Part shown: positions 8,983 through 64,000 of the stretch, piece after piece
How positions within the stretch are numbered: position 1 is the stretch's first letter
How the letters are laid out: each line of letters opens with the position of its first letter
DNA from: Candidatus Dadabacteria bacterium
GTDB lineage: Bacteria; Desulfobacterota_D; UBA1144; Nemesobacterales; Nemesobacteraceae
Direction of reading: 5' to 3'
NCBI GenBank assembly: GCA_026706695.1
Contig: JAPOYE010000047.1
Span: 1,760 to 65,759, forward strand
Length of the DNA stretch: 64,000 bases
Program-made: the position numbers and the translations under genes
The notes under the pieces: model-generated
Told to the model about the DNA's origin: nothing
The model's database searches: none
What the model saw: the letters and a program-made list of their open reading frames with translations, nothing else

Positions 8983-9936
8983 ATGATAACGGCACTTGGC
9001 GGCGGAAGCGGAGCCGCGAAATTCCTCAAGGGACTCACGGGGATAATTCCCCTGTCGGAACTTACCGTAATAGTGAACACCGCGGATGACATGGACCTTT
9101 ACGGAATGAGGGTCTCTCCGGACATAGACACCATAATCTACAGGCTCTCGGGAAGCATAGACGAAAAAAAAGGGTGGGGGCTCCGCGGCGACACGTTCGA
9201 GTTTCTGGGCGCCGCCGCGAGGTTCGGTTTTCCGACATGGTTCGGGCTCGGGGACAGGGATCTCGCCACTCACCTGTTCAGAAAAGCCGTCACCGACGGG
9301 GGCGGGACCCTCAGCGAATCCACTTCAAAGATAGCGCAGCGCTTCGGCCTCGGGGAAATGCGCATACTGCCAATGAGCGATGACAGGGTCGAGACATGGA
9401 TAGAGACGGACGCGGGCGAAATGCACTTCCAGGAATACTACATAAAGCACGCGATGCGCCCCGAGGTTCGCGGGGTCAAGATAAAGGGCGCACGCGAGGC
9501 TTCCGCGGCCCCGCTGGTTCTTGACTCGATAGACGGCGCCGACCTGGTGATCATATGCCCGAGCAACCCCATAATCAGCATAGGGCCCATACTCGAGATA
9601 AAGGAAGTTAGAGAAAGGCTAGTCGGCGCGCCGGGACTCAAGGTCGCCGTGAGTCCCCTTATGCGCGGAAAACCCCTTAAGGGTCCGGCGGACAAACTCA
9701 TGAGGGGGCTTGGAATGGAAGCTTCTTCGACTCAGGTGGCCAGGCTTTACGCCGATTTTCTGGACGTGCTCGTGATTGACCGCTCGGATGCGGGAGAGGC
9801 GGCCGCCATAGAAGCTCTCGGGGTAAGCGTTTTAGTGACGGACACCGTAATCCCCGACGAGCAAAGCTCGATGCGTCTTTCGCAGGAAATTCTTAATTTT
9901 ACAGAATCTTTGGGACAGCGGCGCGCTTCACCCTAG
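8983..9936 (+). CDS. cofD: 2-phospho-L-lactate transferase (CofD/FbiA family)
   Basis: 317 aa. It aligns by eye along its length with archaeal CofD: GGGSGAAKFL, VNTADD, SPDIDT, LGDRDLATH, ILPMSDD, MHFQEY, ICPSNPIISIGPIL, AVSPL..G.PLKGPA.KLM. Confidence 0.85.
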   Translation: MITALGGGSGAAKFLKGLTGIIPLSELTVIVNTADDMDLYGMRVSPDIDTIIYRLSGSIDEKKGWGLRGDTFEFLGAAARFGFPTWFGLGDRDLATHLFRKAVTDGGGTLSESTSKIAQRFGLGEMRILPMSDDRVETWIETDAGEMHFQEYYIKHAMRPEVRGVKIKGAREASAAPLVLDSIDGADLVIICPSNPIISIGPILEIKEVRERLVGAPGLKVAVSPLMRGKPLKGPADKLMRGLGMEASSTQVARLYADFLDVLVIDRSDAGEAAAIEALGVSVLVTDTVIPDEQSSMRLSQEILNFTESLGQRRASP

Positions 9937-9943
9937 GGAGCGA

Positions 9944-10879
9944 TCAGGAATCCTCCTTTTCTTCTCTCCACTGCTCATAATGTATTATGCCGTAGAAAAA
10001 GAACTGGGGTATACCCTTTACTTCCGGTGAATCGCAACTCGTCCGGAGCCTTGCTCCGTGGTTCATGACCACCGTGTTTATGCCATAAACCGTGGTGTCC
10101 CCCTCCACTCCGAACTCAACCGATGTATAGTCCTCCTGATCCTTCTCGAATTGCCACCTTATATCGTAAATGCCGAGTTTTTCTATCTCCTTCCTCAAGA
10201 AATAGTCGGAAACCTGCGAAGTCTGGGAATAACACGACCTTCCCCTGAAGCAGTCAAGAAATATCTCGCCGCGAAGGTGAGAGGAAACCACATCATCGAG
10301 ATTTCCGCCGTTTACCCTCCCGTAATATATCCCCTCGGGAAGCATGATCATGTTGGCGGCGAAGCGGTGGCCCCCTACATGGCTGGTTCTCCACGCGGAA
10401 ATCCCCTCTTTTTTTAGAAGTTCCTTGTAAACCCCCGATCCCGCGACCGCACAGCATCCGTCGTGGGCTCCGTGGGTGCAGACCAGAGCGAGCCTCTCTT
10501 CGCAGGAGAATTTTTCTATCTCCCCGGTGCTGACAAGCTCGGGGAGATCTATCGAGAGGAGGTCTTCGTATGTTTCTATTTCGAATCTGTAGAGTTTCGG
10601 GGAGAATTCAGAAGAGTGGGCGTAGTAAAAAGCAAGGTTTCCCTTGCTTGGCCCCGGCCCCCCTATCAGCTGAATCCTGGATTCCTCAAAAGACGAGAGA
10701 AAGCCTCCAAGATGCTCCTTTACCTCCTCCGGCACCGCGCTTTCCGGAAAAGCATCCCTTTTCCATACCCCGGAGTACTCAAGCAAAAACCAGTTTTTCA
10801 CCTCAAGAGCGGTTCCGTAGAGATGTTCTCCGCTTTGGGAAGACATCTGGGAACATGTAAGTGTTTTTTCGTCGGTCAT
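9944..10879 (-). CDS. sucrase/ferredoxin-like (thioredoxin-fold Fe-S) family protein
   Basis: 311 aa with LVCTHGAHDGCCAVAGSGVY and HVGGHRFAANMIMLPEGIYYGRV, the motifs of the Suc_Fer-like family. Confidence 0.6.
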   Translation of the reverse strand: MTDEKTLTCSQMSSQSGEHLYGTALEVKNWFLLEYSGVWKRDAFPESAVPEEVKEHLGGFLSSFEESRIQLIGGPGPSKGNLAFYYAHSSEFSPKLYRFEIETYEDLLSIDLPELVSTGEIEKFSCEERLALVCTHGAHDGCCAVAGSGVYKELLKKEGISAWRTSHVGGHRFAANMIMLPEGIYYGRVNGGNLDDVVSSHLRGEIFLDCFRGRSCYSQTSQVSDYFLRKEIEKLGIYDIRWQFEKDQEDYTSVEFGVEGDTTVYGINTVVMNHGARLRTSCDSPEVKGIPQFFFYGIIHYEQWREEKEDS

Positions 10880-10880
10880 C

Positions 10881-12173
10881 TCATCCTCCTTGGCCCTGCC
10901 CGGCGTTTTTTGCCCTAAGCACCGTCAGGAATTCCCCCTTCGGCACCAGATAGAAGAACTTTCCCCAGTTTTTCATCACACCCGCGTGCCGGGAGGCATC
11001 TTTTCCCTCCCCCCAGAAAAGGTCGACGCGCCGGGCCCCTTTTATGGCTCCCCCGCTGTCGTGGTTAACGACAAAGCGGGAAACCGGTTCCCACTGCGAC
11101 GGCTCGACTGAAGAGGAAGTTTCGAAGACCGGTCTCTCAAACTCCATGAACGCCAGAGCTCCCCTGGGGAAAAAAACCTTGTCGGTCGCTATGGTCCTGC
11201 CGTCGACGACTTCCGTTCCGAAAGAGGTTTCGGGTTTCCCCGGAAGTCCGCGGAAGAAAATGTAACTCGGGTTTTTGTAAAGGATATTCATCCTCTCCGC
11301 GTAGGAGAGGGATCTCAGGTGGCTTTCTATGGCCCAGAGGCTCATTTTTTCCTTCGGAATCCACTCGAAGAGAAATTTCCCTATTGCCACGTAATCGTGT
11401 CCGTTCTGGGCGGCGTAGCCCACGACCCGCTCCTCTCCGTCCGCGAACCTTATTTTACCCGAGCCCTGAATCTGAAGAAAAAACGCGTCAACAGGGTCTA
11501 CCCACGCGATCTCAAGCCTTTTCCCCCGGAGCTTTCCCCCGGAGTCTATTTCGCTTCGCGAGTAATAGGGAACCAGTTCGGACGTCCTGCCGGGACCTCC
11601 GGGGGCAACCCTGCCGTAGAGGGACTGAAGCTTTTCCCAGGCGATCTTGTCCTCCTCAAGAAACGAAAGTCTCTCGAACCGCTCGACGAACCTGTCTATC
11701 CTCAAGCGCACCAGGTCGTCGGGAATCCCATAGAGCGGCTGGGTGTGCTGAAGTGTCCTGGTTCGGGAAGCGGAGAGCACCGGAGAAAAGTAAGAGGTTA
11801 TAAAAACCTTGCCCCAGGGTTTTCCCGGAAAGCCGTAGAAATCGAAATTTTCCCTTACGTCCTTTATGAAATCATCCTTGGTAACGCCCGCCTCAAGCTT
11901 GGCGAGAAGATAACCGAGTGCAAGTGCGTAGTCTCCCGCGGAGACGGTTTTTTGTCCGAAAACGAGTTGGGAGTCCTTTTTCTGCGAAAGTTTCTCGACG
12001 CTTGCGCCGATGGATTCCTTCAGTCCCTCGGGGAAAAGGTCGTCGTCCATCTCGGGAAATGCGGGAACCGCCCGCATGGACTCGGGGCCCGGAATCTCCG
12101 GAGGTCTCTCGCAGGAAAGGTAGAGAAAGAGCAGGAAAACGGCTGACAGGACAGCTGCGGTTCTTTGGTTCAT
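10881..12173 (-). CDS. mltA: membrane-bound lytic murein transglycosylase A (MltA family)
   Basis: 430 aa. Lipoprotein-like signal (LLFLYLSC), an MltA domain and a C-terminal 3D-domain motif HDSGGAIKGARRVDLFWGEG. Confidence 0.8.
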   Translation of the reverse strand: MNQRTAAVLSAVFLLFLYLSCERPPEIPGPESMRAVPAFPEMDDDLFPEGLKESIGASVEKLSQKKDSQLVFGQKTVSAGDYALALGYLLAKLEAGVTKDDFIKDVRENFDFYGFPGKPWGKVFITSYFSPVLSASRTRTLQHTQPLYGIPDDLVRLRIDRFVERFERLSFLEEDKIAWEKLQSLYGRVAPGGPGRTSELVPYYSRSEIDSGGKLRGKRLEIAWVDPVDAFFLQIQGSGKIRFADGEERVVGYAAQNGHDYVAIGKFLFEWIPKEKMSLWAIESHLRSLSYAERMNILYKNPSYIFFRGLPGKPETSFGTEVVDGRTIATDKVFFPRGALAFMEFERPVFETSSSVEPSQWEPVSRFVVNHDSGGAIKGARRVDLFWGEGKDASRHAGVMKNWGKFFYLVPKGEFLTVLRAKNAGQGQGG

Positions 12174-54746: not shown

Positions 54747-54820
54747 TGGGGCATCGTATAACGGCAGTACAGCGGACTCTGGATCCGCTAGTCTAGGTTC
54801 GAATCCTAGTGCCCCAGCCA
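54747..54820 (+). tRNA. tRNA-Gln (anticodon CTG), CCA encoded
   Basis: Hand-folded: acceptor TGGGGCA/TGCCCCA, anticodon arm GCGGA-CTCTGGA-TCCGC, T arm CTAGG-TTCGAAT-CCTAG, and 3' GCCA. Confidence 0.9.
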
Positions 54821-54966
54821 GCTTTTCGTCTTTGACAATTTTGGTTTCTGTAAAAAATGGGATTTAGCAAGCAGAACATATCTGCAAATATAGAAATTTG
54901 GCCACTTCTATATTCTTTTCAGCGTTATTGTCAAAGGGCTTTGGGAAATCAAGCCTAAATCTAGTC

Positions 54967-55048
54967 ACAGATTATATTCTGTAATTTTATCCTTGACTTA
55001 CAGCTTTTATCCTGTTAACATTGGTTTTACTTACAGAATATAGGCTGT
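54967..55048 (+). promoter_or_regulatory. promoter flanked by two similar 16-bp palindromic operators upstream of the HTH gene
   Basis: ACAGATTATATTCTGT (54967-54982) and ACAGAATATAGGCTGT (55033-55048) flank TTGACT (54993-54998), a 17-nt spacer and TAACAT (55016-55021). Confidence 0.4.
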
Positions 55049-55051
55049 GAT

Positions 55052-55501
55052 ATGACAAACAAATTTAAGTATATGCAATTGCAGACGCTGGATGACCACC
55101 TTTCCAGAGTGAATGTTTGCGACCGTCCCTCTGGCGGTTGGATTCGTGCTGTCCGCACCTCGCTTGGCATGAGCGTTCGTCAGATGGCGGAACGTATAGG
55201 CATCACACAGCAATCCGCCGCTCGTTTGGAGAAAAACGAGATCAATGATGCGATTACACTTAGGTCGCTTCGCAAGGCGGCTGAAGCATTGGATTGCAGG
55301 CTCGTTTATGTTTTTGTTCCAAATGATGGCTCCTTGCGGAACATCGTGCGCAAGCAGGCGCTCAGAAAGGCTCGTGATATCGTTGATCCTGTGGACCACA
55401 GCATGATGCTTGAAGCGCAGGATGTAGGCGACAGGCAGGAGAAAACCGCCCAAATCGCTGATGAGTTGGTGCGCAACCCTGCCATCAGTCTGTGGGACTG
55501 A
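55052..55501 (+). CDS. 'mobile mystery protein A' (XRE-type HTH)
   Basis: 149 aa: RPSGGWIRAVRTSLGMSVRQMAERIGITQQSAARLEKNE...ITLRSLRKAAEALDCRLVYVFVP matches the remembered TIGR02612 pattern. Confidence 0.75.
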   Translation: MTNKFKYMQLQTLDDHLSRVNVCDRPSGGWIRAVRTSLGMSVRQMAERIGITQQSAARLEKNEINDAITLRSLRKAAEALDCRLVYVFVPNDGSLRNIVRKQALRKARDIVDPVDHSMMLEAQDVGDRQEKTAQIADELVRNPAISLWD

Positions 55502-55502
55502 A

Positions 55503-56026
55503 ATGGTTCAGTATCGTTATACAGAGGGCCAGACCCCGCTTAGCGAGGAAGAGAAGGAACATCTCGTTCCCACCATATTAATGCGTGAAGATCTGGACCG
55601 TTTCGAGCGGAGAAATTTATCCTGAACCTTCATAAGCGCATGTTCGGTCGTGTCTGGAAATGGGCAGGTCAGTACCGAAAATCCGACAAAAACATCGGCG
55701 TCAACTATTCCCTCATCCAGACCGAATTTCGCAAGTTGCTGGACGATGCCGCTTATTGGCTGGAACACAATACCTACGGTGTTACTGAACTGGCCGTTAT
55801 TTTTCATCACCGGTTAGTGAAAATTCACCTTTTTCCGAACGGCAACGGCCGACACGCGCGCTTGCTTGCCGATGTAATAGTTGCCAAATATGGTGGTGAA
55901 AAACTCACATGGGGCGGTGGTGCCGACCTCACTGCGTCTGAAGATGTCCGCGAACGCTATATTGCGGCACTGCGTGAGGCTGACTCTGGTATCTATGATT
56001 CCCTGATTTCGTTTGCTAAGTCGTAA
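55503..56026 (+). pseudogene. 'mobile mystery protein B' (Fic/DOC family), split by a frameshift near 55589-55625
   Basis: The ATG at 55503 (TGAaATG coupling) gives 40 codons, then TGA at 55623-55625. The second frame is open from 55589 and continues ..FILNLHKRMFGRVWKWAGQYRKSDKNIGV...HHRLVKIHLFPNGNGRHARLLAD, which carries the Fic motif H.F.NGNGR..R. The two parts together are about 175 aa, a normal length for this family. Confidence 0.7.
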
Positions 56027-57272: not shown

Positions 57273-57590
57273 TTAGTGGTCAGGGGAAACAAGGGTTACG
57301 TGGTCACCTTCAATTTTCTCCCGGAATCTCTCCGGCATGTCATCCCACACGAACAGGTCCACCCGAAACGGAAGATCGCTCTGTTCAAGAGCTTCCCGAA
57401 GATCGCCGACCTGTCTTCTCTGTCCGCTTCCGGCAAATACCACCATGTCGAGATCCGAACTCTTTTTCGCGGCAAGCCTCGCGCGGGAACCGTATACCCA
57501 GACGCGGGTATTCGGAAGATGCTTTTTAAGCAGCGCAAGAAGAACGCCGCGCTGCTCAGAAGAGATATCAATAGCTTTTACTGTTTCCAT
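57273..57590 (-). CDS. MNT-type nucleotidyltransferase antitoxin
   Basis: 105 aa with the minimal nucleotidyltransferase motif VYGSRARLAAKKSSDLDMVV (GS-x10-DxD). Confidence 0.85.
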   Translation of the reverse strand: METVKAIDISSEQRGVLLALLKKHLPNTRVWVYGSRARLAAKKSSDLDMVVFAGSGQRRQVGDLREALEQSDLPFRVDLFVWDDMPERFREKIEGDHVTLVSPDH

Positions 57591-58000
57591 GTTTCTCCGC
57601 TCATTGTTTCGTAAAGACCTGTGGCATCGTCAATAAAGCTGCTTATGATTCCAAGGCATCTTCTGGCCTTTCCCTCATCATAGTCATGGCTTGTATTGAT
57701 GCGGCTGTTTGCGTAATCAAGCCATTTTTCGATCGGTGAGGGGAGAAGGTTGTTTTCAAAGGCCAGTCTGAAAACAGGTTTCGGGCTGTTTGGGGCATCT
57801 GGAACGCCGAGTTCCTCTGCGAGGTGGCGTCTCAGCACCTTCCATAGGCAGTCGTAACAGACCTCAAACCTGTGTATGACCGACTCGGCCACAGCTTCCC
57901 GCATTATCGAATCCAGGTCAGAGTTCTCTATGGCACGGTAATTTCCGTACTGTTCCTCAAGGCGTTTCAGGGAATTTTGAAATTTGTCGTATTCAATCAT
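57578..58000 (-). CDS. HEPN-domain toxin (HI0074 'nucleotidyltransferase substrate-binding protein' family)
   Basis: 140 aa with the HEPN RxxxxH motif RINTSHDY. It overlaps the downstream MNT gene by 13 nt. Confidence 0.85.
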   Translation of the reverse strand: MIEYDKFQNSLKRLEEQYGNYRAIENSDLDSIMREAVAESVIHRFEVCYDCLWKVLRRHLAEELGVPDAPNSPKPVFRLAFENNLLPSPIEKWLDYANSRINTSHDYDEGKARRCLGIISSFIDDATGLYETMSGETWKQ

Positions 58001-59920: not shown

Positions 59921-59965
59921 GCGCAGCTATCTTCGGGGTTTCTCCCGAGGGGGCTGCGCTTTTTT
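59921..59965 (+). terminator. rho-independent terminator after the nitroreductase gene
   Basis: GCGCAGC (59921-59927) pairs with GCTGCGC (59953-59959), with further inner pairing (CTTCGGG/CCCGAGG). Six T residues follow (59960-59965). Confidence 0.7.
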
Positions 59966-60266
59966 GTGCTACTGCTTTTTGTACTCGCACTTGCGGAGAT
60001 TCTGTTTTATGTGTGCCACCACTTGTGGTCTCCATTGTGGCAATAAATCCTTTGCCAAAAAACTTATTGCCAAAAAATCCTTTGTCAGGCAGATAATGGA
60101 AAGCCATCCTGTCCTGACTGAAACCATGGAACCGCTCTGGCACGCGGTGCGGGCGGAGACGGGCGAAGAACTCGAATCCCTGCCCGCGGAGATCACTCAA
60201 GCCGTAATTGATATAAGGAAGAGGTTCTCGGAGAAAAAAAAGATGTTGCCAGGAACAACGCCGCTA

Positions 60267-60356
60267 TCAAGCCGATAGATTTCCCCTATTTCCTGTGCTC
60301 GCACTTACAGAGGTTCTGCCTTGACCGCCGCCTTCCATGTAGATTGCGACATTCAC
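60267..60356 (-). pseudogene. truncated N-terminal remnant of the partner gene (DUF4276-like?)
   Basis: The GTG overlaps the preceding stop (GTGA). It reads VNVAIYMEGGGQGRTSVSAS.. and stops after 29 codons. The (Y)(V/M)EGGG start is, from memory, typical of DUF4276-type proteins that follow such ATPases. Confidence 0.25.
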
Positions 60357-60556: not shown

Positions 60557-62596
60557 TCATAGCAGGAACTCTGATTTCATATTTTCGACAAAGTCTGGAC
60601 CGCAATGGTCAAATCCAAAGAGTTGGAGTATCGGGCAAGCCAAATCTGACACAACCGTCGCCCACTCATCTTCAAGTTTCTCCACGGCGCATGTTTTCTC
60701 TGTAGTGAGTTTGTCCGCTTTCGCTACGCGACGCAGGGAATAATAAACTGAACGATTGAAATCAGAAATTTCCCGGTTCCCGAGGCCCATCCAGGTGCAG
60801 CGGAAACTCACTTGGGATGCCGTTTTAAACTCTTTTGCCAGCAACATCGCGTGAGTGACCAGTTCCGCCGTCTCCCGGATAACTGTTTCGGGAGACAGCC
60901 AGGTGCCAGCACTTCGGCTAAGCTCTTCAACGCTGTCTGGCCTGTCTTCCCTGTAGGCCCTAATCAGGCTCATGCGTCCATCGGGCGCGACGCGCTGAAG
61001 TTCCGGAAACCAGAGACCCGCGCCGTGTGGTTCGACATCGTTAATCATAAAATTGCCCTCAAGCAAGTATTCTCCTTCGTCCGATTCCTTTGGTCGGGGT
61101 GCCGGTTTGATTTTCTGCAGGAATTTCGGGTCAAACATGCTCCAGCCTTTCCACACCGTGGTGCGGACTCCGTTAACCACTTTTTCCAAGACTTGGAGAA
61201 ACGGCCGCGGAGAAAATTTTTTCTCGTCTGGAGAGATCAAGTAACTCAGCTGGTAGCGATTATCTTTTAGCGACGGCCAGATAGAACCTTGAGCCTTGGA
61301 AAGCAGGTCAAGGAAACGCTTCTCCGTTTCTTCATGCCAAGTCTCCAGCCGTTGTCTTGTGGCAGGCACTTCTCTTTCCGGCGTTCCTGGAACTCTACTC
61401 GAGTGCAGCCGCACCATGAAACGTTCGTGTTTTTCAATGAGGTCGGGGTTGGAACCGTTATGTTCTTTCATCCCTTTTATGATTTTCCGTGATACCCCCA
61501 TCCCAAGATTTTCCATGTATCCGTAATCTCGCATGAAATCTTTGAGCAGTGGATTTCTGGAAGACCGAGCTCCGTCGCGCATGCTCTCCGGTGTTATCCC
61601 GTTCGGGAGCTTTCCGGGCGAGGTTATTTCCAGTCTGTCACTATAAACCGCCAGTTCAATGTCGGTACCCGATAGAAGGTAGTCTCTGTGTGTCAAGGCG
61701 TTTACTATGGCTTCCCTGACGGCATCCTCAGGGTATGTTGGCCTTTCCACGCGGCGAGCACCGTCTTCAAGAACGGCCGATACGGAGGTGTTGCGCCGGA
61801 CGAAATCCACGGACTGTTCTACTAGGCCCGTTTCCAGAAGGTTGCCCTTGCTGTCCATAAGCGGGGCCATGGCTCCTCGAAGCTGCTTCCGTTCTCTTGT
61901 AGCGTATTCTTTTTCCGTTCCTGCAAACGCCACGGCGTTGATGCCTGCCTGCGGCAGATATCGGTTCGGCGTTGTTCCGAACAGCAGCATACCGCCGACC
62001 GTTACTACATCTTCGTCCATAATTTCCATGTTTGAAAGCAGGGTAATCCATCCCGCGTCGTCATCTGGAAAGTCCCGCTGGAGAATACGCCCGAAGTAGT
62101 CTTTAAGCCGACGACGGTCCAAGTCGTTGATTGTCGTTCCCGAAATCGGTCGGGAGTCGACGCGCAACATATGTCTTTGCTGGAACAGACGACTCATCTC
62201 CTCAAGAGTTGGTTCACGGCTTTGGGAACCAACTCTTATATAACAGACCGTTCTGTTATTGTGCCAGCGGCTGTGTGCGTAAAGACCCTGAGGAACGCGT
62301 ACGACCGCAACATTTTTGCCTGGTTCTACTTCTTCAATGATTTCAAAATACGGGATTATAGCCGGCCTGATTTTGTCTCTGCACGTGTTCATCACCCATT
62401 CTTCAAGACCCTCTCGGACAAGGCCCGTGACGCTTCCGTCATCTTCAACGCCGAGAAGCACGATGCCACCCTCAAGATTGGAAAAAGCGACAAGTTCTTT
62501 CGCGAGATCGTGGTTTTGCAGGGTGTCGCGTTTGAACTCAACGCCTGAATTCTCACCGTTGGCAATAATTTCCAGAAGTTCTGTTCGTGTTATCAT
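60557..62596 (-). CDS. AlbA_2 (Schlafen-type) + HATPase_c_4 domain protein with unassigned C-terminal domain
   Basis: 679 aa. N-terminus: TELLEIIANGENSGVEFKRD...AFSNLEGGIVLLGVEDDGSVTGL. Middle: VREAIVNALTHRDY..GTDIELAVYSDRLEITSPGKLPNGIT...SRNPLLKDFMRDYGYMENLGMGV. Residues ~410-679 carry no recognisable motif. Confidence 0.8.
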   Translation of the reverse strand: MITRTELLEIIANGENSGVEFKRDTLQNHDLAKELVAFSNLEGGIVLLGVEDDGSVTGLVREGLEEWVMNTCRDKIRPAIIPYFEIIEEVEPGKNVAVVRVPQGLYAHSRWHNNRTVCYIRVGSQSREPTLEEMSRLFQQRHMLRVDSRPISGTTINDLDRRRLKDYFGRILQRDFPDDDAGWITLLSNMEIMDEDVVTVGGMLLFGTTPNRYLPQAGINAVAFAGTEKEYATRERKQLRGAMAPLMDSKGNLLETGLVEQSVDFVRRNTSVSAVLEDGARRVERPTYPEDAVREAIVNALTHRDYLLSGTDIELAVYSDRLEITSPGKLPNGITPESMRDGARSSRNPLLKDFMRDYGYMENLGMGVSRKIIKGMKEHNGSNPDLIEKHERFMVRLHSSRVPGTPEREVPATRQRLETWHEETEKRFLDLLSKAQGSIWPSLKDNRYQLSYLISPDEKKFSPRPFLQVLEKVVNGVRTTVWKGWSMFDPKFLQKIKPAPRPKESDEGEYLLEGNFMINDVEPHGAGLWFPELQRVAPDGRMSLIRAYREDRPDSVEELSRSAGTWLSPETVIRETAELVTHAMLLAKEFKTASQVSFRCTWMGLGNREISDFNRSVYYSLRRVAKADKLTTEKTCAVEKLEDEWATVVSDLACPILQLFGFDHCGPDFVENMKSEFLL

Positions 62597-62599
62597 GTC

Positions 62600-64000
62600 T
62601 CAGAATCCGTACTTGGAGCGACGCATCTCGAAAGCGTCCTTGCCGCCTTCCAGAATTTCTTCAACCAATTCTCGAACCAGCTGAGAATCAATGGAACCCA
62701 TATGCTCAGTTGCTATATCTGCTTGACCCGTCTCAGCTTTACCCGATACGTCTAGGCCGAGGATCAGTTCGGCATCGCCTAGAACCGGAATATTTGCATT
62801 GTGGGTAGAGAACACGAACTGTCGGCGCTGTTTCTCCGTGCGCATGATCGGCACTATGCTTTCGGTGATGAAGCGGTTATCAAGATCATCCTCCGGCTGA
62901 TCAACAACAAGCGGGGAATTTGATTCAAGCAGGAGCAACAGAAGTATGGCCGTGGCCTTCTGACCCGTGGAAAGTGATTGTAGCTTCTGCCATGTCTCCG
63001 GTTCCCCCTCTGCTGCCGTGTTCAGTTCGATCTCGGTTATAGTCGGAAGTTCCAATTCTTCAATCCTCATGAACAGACCGGGACCGGCTTTTGCTATCCG
63101 CGCCGCAGCCCTTGGGGGAAACCGATATTTTTCCATGAGTGCTTCTTTGCCCTTTCGGCATTGCTCGGCGAATTCCTGGAGAGACAACTGATCAGTTTCT
63201 CGCAGTTTCTCGAAGGCAGCGACGAGTTTTCCCCCAACTTCCCTCAATAGCTGTTCAAAAGGGTCGTAGTTTCCGGCCATCTTGACATCAACCCGTACTC
63301 GGCCATGCAGTTTTTTTGAAACTTTTCTGGACGCCTTGGCAATCTCACGATATTCGCTGTTCTTGAGGTCTTCCCATTCCGAGAGAAGTTTTCGGCGGTC
63401 CGACTCGTATGCGGACAGGTTACGCTTAAGAGTTTTGGCTTTGTCTTTTAAAGGACGCAACTCCTCGATTTGATGTCTCAACTGTATGAACTCGGCACCA
63501 TCAATTTTTGATTTCTGGAGATCCCGCAATAGCTTTTCGTAAGTTTTTTCGATAGCATTTCGTTTTTGCTCCCAGCGCGATTTGATTTCTGCTATCGCCT
63601 TATCTGTTTCGGAGACGGCCTTGGCAAATCGACCAGCAACTTTGGCGAGGTTTCCGCTCAGGGATCCAAGAACCGTTTTCGTTTCAAGCAAGATCTCGGC
63701 GTTCGGCAATCCTTCAAGTGCTTTATCGGAGACGAAGGCCATGTCGATCGGAAGTTCCTCCATCAGTTCACTGTAAAGCGTGCGTATCGGTTCCAATCGC
63801 TCTTTAGCCTCGGAAAACAAGCGTTCCTCCCGGACCAGCATACTTTTTTCTTTGAGTCGCTCCGCAAGCCCAACCTTCACAAAGCGCTTTTGCGTTTCTT
63901 CAAGACCGGGCAGTTTTGCCAGTCGTTCATCAAGCGCTTCTATCTCGCGCCGCGCATCCAGTATCCGGTTTCTAGATCTCTCCAGCTCCAAGCGGAGTTT
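62600..64000 (-). CDS. SMC/Rad50-like coiled-coil ABC ATPase, C-terminal part (5' end beyond window)
   Basis: Frame open to base 64000 (>=466 codons). About 330 aa of charged, heptad-rich sequence is followed by LSTGQKATAILLLLLLE (signature-like), PLVVDQPEDDLD (Walker B/D-loop) and FVFSTHNANIPVLGDAE (H-loop). The stop lies 3 nt before the ATG of the next gene. Confidence 0.75.
   Translation of the reverse strand, partial: KLRLELERSRNRILDARREIEALDERLAKLPGLEETQKRFVKVGLAERLKEKSMLVREERLFSEAKERLEPIRTLYSELMEELPIDMAFVSDKALEGLPNAEILLETKTVLGSLSGNLAKVAGRFAKAVSETDKAIAEIKSRWEQKRNAIEKTYEKLLRDLQKSKIDGAEFIQLRHQIEELRPLKDKAKTLKRNLSAYESDRRKLLSEWEDLKNSEYREIAKASRKVSKKLHGRVRVDVKMAGNYDPFEQLLREVGGKLVAAFEKLRETDQLSLQEFAEQCRKGKEALMEKYRFPPRAAARIAKAGPGLFMRIEELELPTITEIELNTAAEGEPETWQKLQSLSTGQKATAILLLLLLESNSPLVVDQPEDDLDNRFITESIVPIMRTEKQRRQFVFSTHNANIPVLGDAELILGLDVSGKAETGQADIATEHMGSIDSQLVRELVEEILEGGKDAFEMRRSKYGF

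Follow-up and report, generated by a model that had tools for sequence, protein, structure and literature searches.

A stretch of 64,000 nucleotides from a Candidatus Dadabacteria bacterium (contig JAPOYE010000047.1, positions 1,760 to 65,759; the whole stretch is called the window here) ends in two coupled genes, trlF and trlG, the pair known from the Temperature Restricting Locus (TRL). The first gene is cut by the window edge. Its open reading frame (ORF) gives the C-terminal 466 residues of an 890-residue protein, namely a coiled-coil arm followed by an ABC C-lobe with the signature LSTGQK, the Walker B motif VVDQPEDDLD and the H-loop STHN. The second gene is complete and encodes a long form of TrlG, in which an AlbA_2/Schlafen-type domain and a HATPase_c_4 module are followed by about 270 residues with no match in Pfam, NCBIfam or PADLOC (residues ~405-679). 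The coordinates are collected in Table 1.

A preliminary description, made from the letters alone, had read the ATPase frame as open at the edge, with a coiled coil and a C-lobe, and had divided TrlG in the same three-part way. Both readings hold. The N-terminal PHP-like domain of TrlF escaped that description; it is encoded past the window edge, together with the Walker A head. To extend the locus, the 679-residue protein was looked up by exact match, which gave three metagenome scaffolds. The complete 890-residue TrlF is on one of them, L001 (L001:2718-5390). Further operon genes had been expected past position 64,000. What lies upstream of trlF on L001 is a cytochrome c gene, then Rdx, then a LeuA-like gene, and five related genomes have these flanks as well. 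The cytochrome c gene is separated from trlF by a gap of ~100 nt in L001, L005 and L091. Since this gene is the next one past the ATPase and the flanks are syntenic in the five related genomes, the operon consists of exactly two genes, flanked by the cytochrome c and nitroreductase genes.

Table 1. Features of the trlF-trlG locus, in window positions
Feature	Position	Strand	Basis or remark
trlF 3' part: codons 425-890 and TGA stop (62600-62602)	62600-64000	-	ORF reaches window edge
trlF/trlG junction TTC TGA gac ATG: stop, 3 nt, start	62594-62602	-	direct sequence reading
trlG long form, 679 residues and stop	60557-62596	-	ORF, Pfam domains, homology to ~400-residue TrlG
Schlafen/AlbA_2 domain, residues 15-128	62213-62554	-	Pfam PF04326, 71.3 bits (cutoff 25.3)
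Schlafen motif E15-x4-E20-x-K22	62531-62554	-	plus D52 within the same domain
HATPase_c_4 module, residues 310-397	61406-61669	-	Pfam PF13749, 82.4 bits; GHKL or "minimal histidine kinase"-like
TrlG C-terminal domain, residues ~411-679	60560-61366	-	alpha/beta fold in AlphaFold2 model

The assignment to TRL is based on both proteins. Full-length TrlF scores 509.7 bits on NF045780 (TrlF_fam_ATP), the curated NCBIfam equivalog model "TrlF family AAA-like ATPase", for which the curated cutoff is 350. The match spans the whole model (model positions 2-944). The fragment in the window alone gives 281.4 bits, below the cutoff because it is truncated. The trlR-trlF-trlG genes form the Temperature Restricting Locus of Photorhabdus laumondii, whose TrlG, misannotated recG, is composed of AlbA_2 (14-128) and HATPase_c_4 (298-365) (Hapeshi et al. 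2020, PMC7554251). The same paper names Vibrio parahaemolyticus and the Yersinia ruckeri plasmid pYR3 as TRL carriers. The window TrlG is 45% identical to the TrlG of a V. parahaemolyticus plasmid and 32% identical to that of pYR3, and each of these two genes adjoins a gene annotated "TrlF family AAA-like ATPase". Because the ATPase passes the TrlF model and the TrlG homologues of the carriers named in the paper stand beside annotated TrlF, the pairing already has a name. Judged from homology, the window pair is the trlF-trlG locus, not the undescribed pairing that had been supposed.

The window locus agrees with the Photorhabdus TRL in its two core genes, which are tightly coupled and identically ordered, in a patchy and mobile distribution, in a TrlF of the type annotated as a PHP or "histidinol phosphatase" ATPase, and in a TrlG with AlbA_2 and HATPase_c_4 domains that is often misannotated recG. 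It differs from it in three respects. The window proteins fall in a distant environmental clade; no trlR-type small gene lies upstream of trlF in the window lineage; and the window TrlG bears the extra 270-residue C-terminal domain. The temperature phenotype is known for P. laumondii only. The locus is therefore a TRL cassette that lacks trlR and whose TrlG bears a rare C-terminal domain. It is this domain that is new here, the gene pair itself being already named.

To survey the distribution of the pair, a TrlF alignment was run against genomes of which each represents one species; this gave 259 confirmed relatives, and the best 80 loci were examined. In 79 of these 80, trlG lies on the same strand and starts 3-9 nt after the trlF stop. 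The TGAgacATG coupling, which had been taken as a sign of co-translation and is read directly in the window, thus has its counterpart in nearly all loci. Residues 1-405 of the window TrlG are 60-77% identical to the ~400-residue TrlG of the same 79 loci. The 80 loci span about a dozen phyla (Acidobacteriota, Alpha- and Gammaproteobacteria, Binatia, Latescibacterota, Nitrospinota, Nitrospira, Rhodothermales and others). Across these phyla the identity is ~70% for TrlF and for TrlG alike, a sign of horizontal spread. A TrlG homologue is present in 73 plasmid records, and 41 of these plasmids are conjugative. Many plasmids of 160-300 kb from Klebsiella, E. coli and Proteus carry near-identical copies of the trlF-trlG pair of plasmid pNDM10505. 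No conserved third gene was found at the trlF-trlG loci. At 32 of 85 loci there is a small gene of the ribbon-helix-helix type ahead of trlF; it is not found in the window lineage.

The sole trlF locus without trlG among the 80 is that of Azospirillum endophyticum (L066). Here a 628-residue ORF (9768-11654) without Pfam match is followed by a DDE transposase; this ORF may be an alternative partner, or the locus may be disrupted. In Vibrio phage 10N.286.54.E11_PE001 (PQ189346.1; L088, 1343-3959) a TrlF-like protein is split into a PHP gene and an ATPase gene; the two adjoin an integrase, within an element of 14 kb that is of the Vinavirales type. Yersinia phage vB_YenM_42.18 and records of Listeria phages contain full-length relatives of TrlF that are more distant.

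The pair is repeatedly inserted into operons of defence systems. In the V. parahaemolyticus plasmid, trlF-trlG is flanked by pglX and pglZ, as part of a BREX-1 operon. In the IncC plasmid pNDM10505 (L098, NC_019069.1, 1414-12177), an NDM-carrying plasmid of E. coli, hsdR is on one side of it and hsdS/hsdM on the other, all in a type I restriction-modification (R-M) operon, and the cassette is inside a Tn7-like element, beside tnsD. In several genomes it follows type III Mod/Res genes, or is placed between hmaB and hmaC. The trlF-trlG pair is self-contained, horizontally mobile and repeatedly embedded in restriction-type operons.

The chromosomal slot between the cytochrome c and nitroreductase genes also shows gene turnover. 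The window, L001, L005 and L091 carry trlF and the long trlG at this position. In L090, a DDE transposase splits trlF into an 811-residue N-terminal part and a C-terminal remnant (L090:5356-9997), and an intact short trlG follows. In L089 and L004, HEC-01A and HEC-01B (PADLOC 508 and 227 bits) occupy the trlF site (L089:8066-9903 and L004:8008-9827) and trlG is again intact, in the short form in L089 and in the long form in L004; in the latter, a GajB fragment, DruA and insertion sequence (IS) elements follow. This means that in L004 and L089 one ABC-ATPase cassette was swapped for another directly upstream of the Schlafen gene, and that intact trlG persists without functional trlF in three sister genomes. 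HEC-01 is said, in a 2024 preprint by Payne and co-workers, to consist of an ABC ATPase and a TOPRIM protein and to be embedded in Hma systems. It resembles trlF-trlG in being an ABC-ATPase two-gene cassette. Its ATPase, however, is of an unrelated family and its partner is a TOPRIM protein; it is not in the window. Just downstream of the intact trlG, decayed pieces of a second trlG are seen in L091 (12067-12446) and L089 (11843-11989). They are 41-69% identical and correspond to residues 38-85 and 202-330, which suggests past replacement of the cassette by recombination.

In view of this gene turnover among sister genomes, the slot behaves as a defence hot spot in the window lineage, and a defence role of TRL is well supported by context. 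The preliminary description had proposed a defence-type operon in a defence-island setting. The operon, with two genes, and its setting stand, and the defence-type reading is plausible and has gained much support from the embedding in BREX, R-M and Hma operons and the turnover of the slot; the proposal that the system was an undescribed one does not.

In full-length TrlF, the Pfam head matches are to AAA_21, SMC_N and AAA_23. At the position usually occupied by the metal-binding HxH motif of PHP domains, TrlF has Q26-x-N28. This Q-x-N is invariant in the family and is part of residues 23-29 (L001:2784-2804), which read C-A-L-Q-V-N-P without exception across the whole family. The later PHP motifs (DH, E, H and H) are kept. 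The PHP site of TrlF may be altered or inactive. The best PADLOC match of TrlF is Ppl, with 122.1 bits in two partial stretches; on the NCBIfam model for that family (NF042955, Ppl_antiphage), TrlF gives 158.6 bits and fails the cutoff of 1000. From these scores, Ppl is the closest characterised relative of TrlF, and a distant one. Ppl was reportedly described by Gao and colleagues in 2020 as a single-gene anti-phage protein of E. coli. It is a PHP 3'-5' exonuclease and NTPase, which depletion of nucleotides and 3'-OH ends activate (PMC12904381). In both proteins an N-terminal domain, of PHP type in Ppl and a weakly matched candidate PHP domain in TrlF, is followed by an ATPase of the ABC type into which a coiled coil is inserted. 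They differ in that Ppl acts alone, whereas trlF is followed by trlG in 79 of 80 loci, and in that TrlF has Q-x-N in place of HxH and scores far under the Ppl family cutoff.

The N-terminal domain of TrlG carries the Schlafen catalytic motif Ex4(E/D)xK as defined for bacterial Schlafens (PMC13056530). Among 75 TrlG sequences, E15 and K22 are conserved in 100%, E20 in 96% (the rest having D) and D52 in 99%. By its motif, TrlG is predicted to be a Schlafen-type nuclease. Residues 251-372 match the uncharacterised protein of PDB entry 3lmm_A (E=1.3e-9). Bacterial Schlafens (pSlfns) with this motif are phage-activated tRNases, and examples with architectures other than that of TrlG protect their hosts through tRNA cleavage; the Slfn-"HisKinase" type is their commonest architecture (34%), and the domains fused to pSlfns act as sensors (Perez Taboada et al. 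2026, PMC13056530). TrlG is similar to them in its Slfn/AlbA_2 domain with Ex4(E/D)xK, in its variable C-terminal domains of the kind proposed as sensors, and in its association with defence islands. The validated pSlfns, however, are DUF262-Slfn and Slfn-Ig-like proteins encoded by single genes. Slfn-minimal-HisKinase(-wHTH) RNases in BREX and BREX-related loci are regarded as backup suicidal effectors (Rakesh & Krishnan 2026, PMC12839542). These have the same Slfn domain and minimal kinase-like module inside BREX operons, and include a winged helix-turn-helix (wHTH); the window TrlG is without wHTH and has the other, 270-residue domain instead. A PHP/ABC ATPase partner is not mentioned in the main text of either paper.

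The long and short forms of TrlG are collinear up to about residue 405. Beyond this point there is a Pro/Thr/Gly-rich linker, and then either a stop or the C-terminal domain. The domain is found on TrlG in only four 90%-identity clusters, the window protein and P0001-P0003, and is absent from all 80 TrlF loci examined. Purifying selection acts on it, with a dN/dS of 0.12-0.22 compared with 0.09-0.14 in the remainder of the protein. Read-through into an adjacent gene was ruled out as the source of the long form, no remnants of the domain being present in the short-form sisters or in the 80 TrlF loci. In the AlphaFold2 model (pLDDT 85.6, pTM 0.88), the domain has a mixed alpha/beta fold with the secondary-structure order beta-alpha-beta4-alpha, an order compatible with a TATA-binding protein (TBP)-like fold. 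A Foldseek search with this model gave no match at E<=1e-3 in PDB or BFVD. The top matches, which are not significant, are TATA-binding proteins (PDB 1qna_A, E=0.047, TM 0.17-0.23; BFVD TBP, E=0.014). A "TBP-like" fusion class makes up 1.5% of pSlfns (PMC13056530). An ordinary wHTH, raised earlier as an outcome that would speak against a new module, was ruled out for this C-terminus in view of the mixed alpha/beta model and the lack of any helix-turn-helix (HTH) match.

An exhaustive search of 1.84 billion representative proteins gave 228 relatives of the domain, and domain architectures were counted on the 83 complete proteins among the best 150 of them. In 31 of the 83 the domain follows a Schlafen domain with the catalytic motif, in 12 it follows other modules, including TIR and HTH+Slfn, and 40 are stand-alone. 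Stand-alone copies occur in defence islands. Proteins with this domain adjoin ApeA and a type II R-M pair, and DUF4365 and DUF4238 genes on Rhizobium plasmids. One of them, P0242 (Slfn plus the C-terminal domain), stands alone among housekeeping-type genes. The domain is thus a rare mobile domain without a solved structural relative.

Other extensions of TrlG start at the same point as the domain of the window protein (L022:9677-11410, L026 and L072:4598-6124). Two Marinacidobacterales TrlGs have a beta-rich extension of ~175 residues with a weak match to CarboxypepD_reg (Ig-like), and the TrlG of one proteobacterial metagenome-assembled genome has an unrelated tail of ~100 residues. Because the domain is attached to two different effectors and because variable extensions begin at one site of TrlG, its role is probably that of a sensor or regulator. 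Alternatively, it might be a second effector or enzyme, which would make the long TrlG a dual effector. Eight of its residues are invariant (H421, Y452, R535, R546, E550, D551, H582 and R608); being polar or aromatic, they could form an active site, and about half of the complete family members stand alone. The fusion to two unrelated effectors, a Schlafen RNase and TIR, is however the usual pattern of a sensor. Other TrlGs bear unrelated extensions at this site, and the Ig-like/CarboxypepD_reg-like one resembles the Ig-like phage sensor of RorSlfn5 (PMC13056530). Moreover, no catalytic fold was recognised in the domain. A second effector therefore seems rather doubtful.

Taken together, we propose that the TRL cassette is an abortive-infection-type module, in which TrlF is the monitor, TrlG is the RNase effector and the C-terminal domain is an added input; we would put the probability of this at roughly 70%. 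The proposal draws on the genomic context, the Photorhabdus phenotype and the Schlafen and Ppl relatives. TrlF would monitor DNA ends or the nucleotide state, as Ppl does, and might also degrade DNA. TrlG would be a toxic RNase which, once released, shuts down translation. Such a role fits the finding that TrlG is the growth-arresting component at 36 °C in Photorhabdus (PMC7554251). In the window clade, the 270-residue domain would give the TrlG nuclease an additional sensory or regulatory input. A more far-reaching form can be put forward only tentatively: TRL may be a widespread and so far unrecognised two-component anti-phage system, in which a Ppl-like PHP/ABC ATPase that senses DNA ends and nucleotides licenses a Schlafen tRNase, the restriction at 36 °C is a misfiring, and the C-terminal domain is a new sensor fold common to Schlafen and TIR effectors that serves as a second, independent trigger input.

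Several observations count against the abortive-infection proposal. No experimental phage test of TRL was found in the literature, in which a search for TrlF and TrlG led only to the 2020 paper and one that cites it; the only recorded phenotype is the temperature-dependent growth arrest. HisKinase-type Schlafens were tested with a panel of phages and did not protect against it (PMC13056530). PADLOC v2 has no model for the trlF-trlG pair, and a scan of viral contigs revealed no close relatives of TrlF. The PHP match of TrlF in Pfam is 21.4 bits, below the cutoff of 26.4. In a comparison with PDB profiles, the PHP protein 3e0f is matched weakly, at E=0.15; the alignment includes D68-H69, E94, H102 and H156. 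Since Q-x-N replaces HxH, nuclease activity of TrlF is uncertain. The AlphaFold2 model of full-length TrlF is poor (pLDDT 54.9); Foldseek matches this poor model to SMC, MukB, JetC and Rad50 heads, with PHP entries lower, a result that is consistent with the domain assignment and not decisive. Finally, mutual functional dependence of TrlF and TrlG is unproven, in view of the three sister genomes that keep an intact trlG without functional trlF.

The Photorhabdus data might also be taken at face value. TRL would then be a physiological thermoregulatory locus which halts replication above a set temperature, as a niche adaptation with no defence role. This explanation has the sole experimental data on its side. 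The operon is induced by a temperature up-shift, and growth at 36 °C is regained through spontaneous missense, nonsense or IS-insertion mutations of trlG, or through deletion of the operon (PMC7554251). It does not easily account for the patchy distribution, the ~70% identity across unrelated phyla, the conjugative plasmids, the embedding in BREX, type I/III R-M and Hma operons, or the exchange of defence genes at the slot in the window lineage. Patchiness, plasmids, embedding and slot turnover are features of mobile immune cargo rather than of conserved physiology. A purely thermoregulatory locus is thus considered unlikely.

TrlG and TrlF might also be a toxin-antitoxin or addiction pair stabilising mobile elements, with TrlG as the toxic RNase and TrlF as its neutraliser. 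TrlG inhibits growth, the genes are tightly coupled and frequent on plasmids, and no mutations were recovered in trlF in the Photorhabdus screen (PMC7554251). However, trlG is intact without functional trlF in L004 and L089, where HEC-01 took the place of trlF, and in L090, where trlF is split by an IS; and an 890-residue PHP/ABC ATPase with a coiled coil would be atypical as an antitoxin. This makes an addiction pair improbable. The kinship with Lamassu or Wadjet suggested earlier, that is, an undescribed SMC-type ATPase sensor plus effector with more genes past the window edge, can hardly be maintained: an SMC/Rad50-like head and a coiled coil are present, but the matches to LmuB (41.8 bits at best, N-terminal head only) and JetC (11.2 bits) are weak and confined to the ATPase head, LmuA and JetA/B/D partners are missing, Ppl is the closer relative, the pair is the named trlF-trlG, and the gene past the ATPase is the syntenic cytochrome c gene.

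Three lines of work meet at this locus, namely the temperature restriction of the insect-pathogenic Photorhabdus, the anti-phage exonuclease Ppl and the bacterial Schlafen tRNases; no paper connecting TRL, Ppl and bacterial Schlafens was found in the literature examined. If TRL is an abortive-infection module, it would become understandable that a gene pair which is mobile and patchy in distribution keeps Photorhabdus from growing at the body temperature of mammals. The defence catalogue would also gain a common cassette, present in at least 259 species-representative genomes and on many IncC-type resistance plasmids, and the Slfn-HisKinase class would receive a partner, whose presence may be required for its activity to show. 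The C-terminal domain forms a small, sharply delimited family, is modelled with confidence, has no known relative in fold and occurs on two immune effectors; it is a good candidate for sensor discovery.

The surroundings of the locus in the window agree in part with the preliminary description. The GC content of the four 1-kb bins over the locus is 0.50-0.53, compared with ~0.54 for the window. The lower GC reported earlier is therefore present, though marginal, and nine other bins are as low or lower. In the neighbourhood, a tRNA gene, a mobile-mystery pair and a nucleotidyltransferase pair are indeed there. For the decayed ATPase-module fragments no support was obtained: a search for fragments of TrlF or TrlG elsewhere in the window gave no significant match.

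The tRNA gene (54747-54817, +) is directly followed by the gene for "mobile mystery protein A" (55052-55501). This is paired with "mobile mystery protein B", which is Fic-like and ends at 56026. Both proteins pass their TIGRFAM cutoffs, and with the tRNA gene the pair makes up a small mobile islet (54747-56026). An overlapping gene pair at 57273-58000 (-) consists of a 105-residue minimal nucleotidyltransferase-like ORF and a 140-residue nucleotidyltransferase substrate-binding protein of the HI0074 family (55.1 bits, cutoff 55.8). It is at the same position in the sister genomes L005, L090 and L091, and is a putative toxin-antitoxin cassette of the MNT/HEPN type. Between trlG and the nitroreductase gene, a 104-residue ORF without Pfam match (59964-60278, +) is convergent with trlG; on L001 and L002 it is called as 89 residues.

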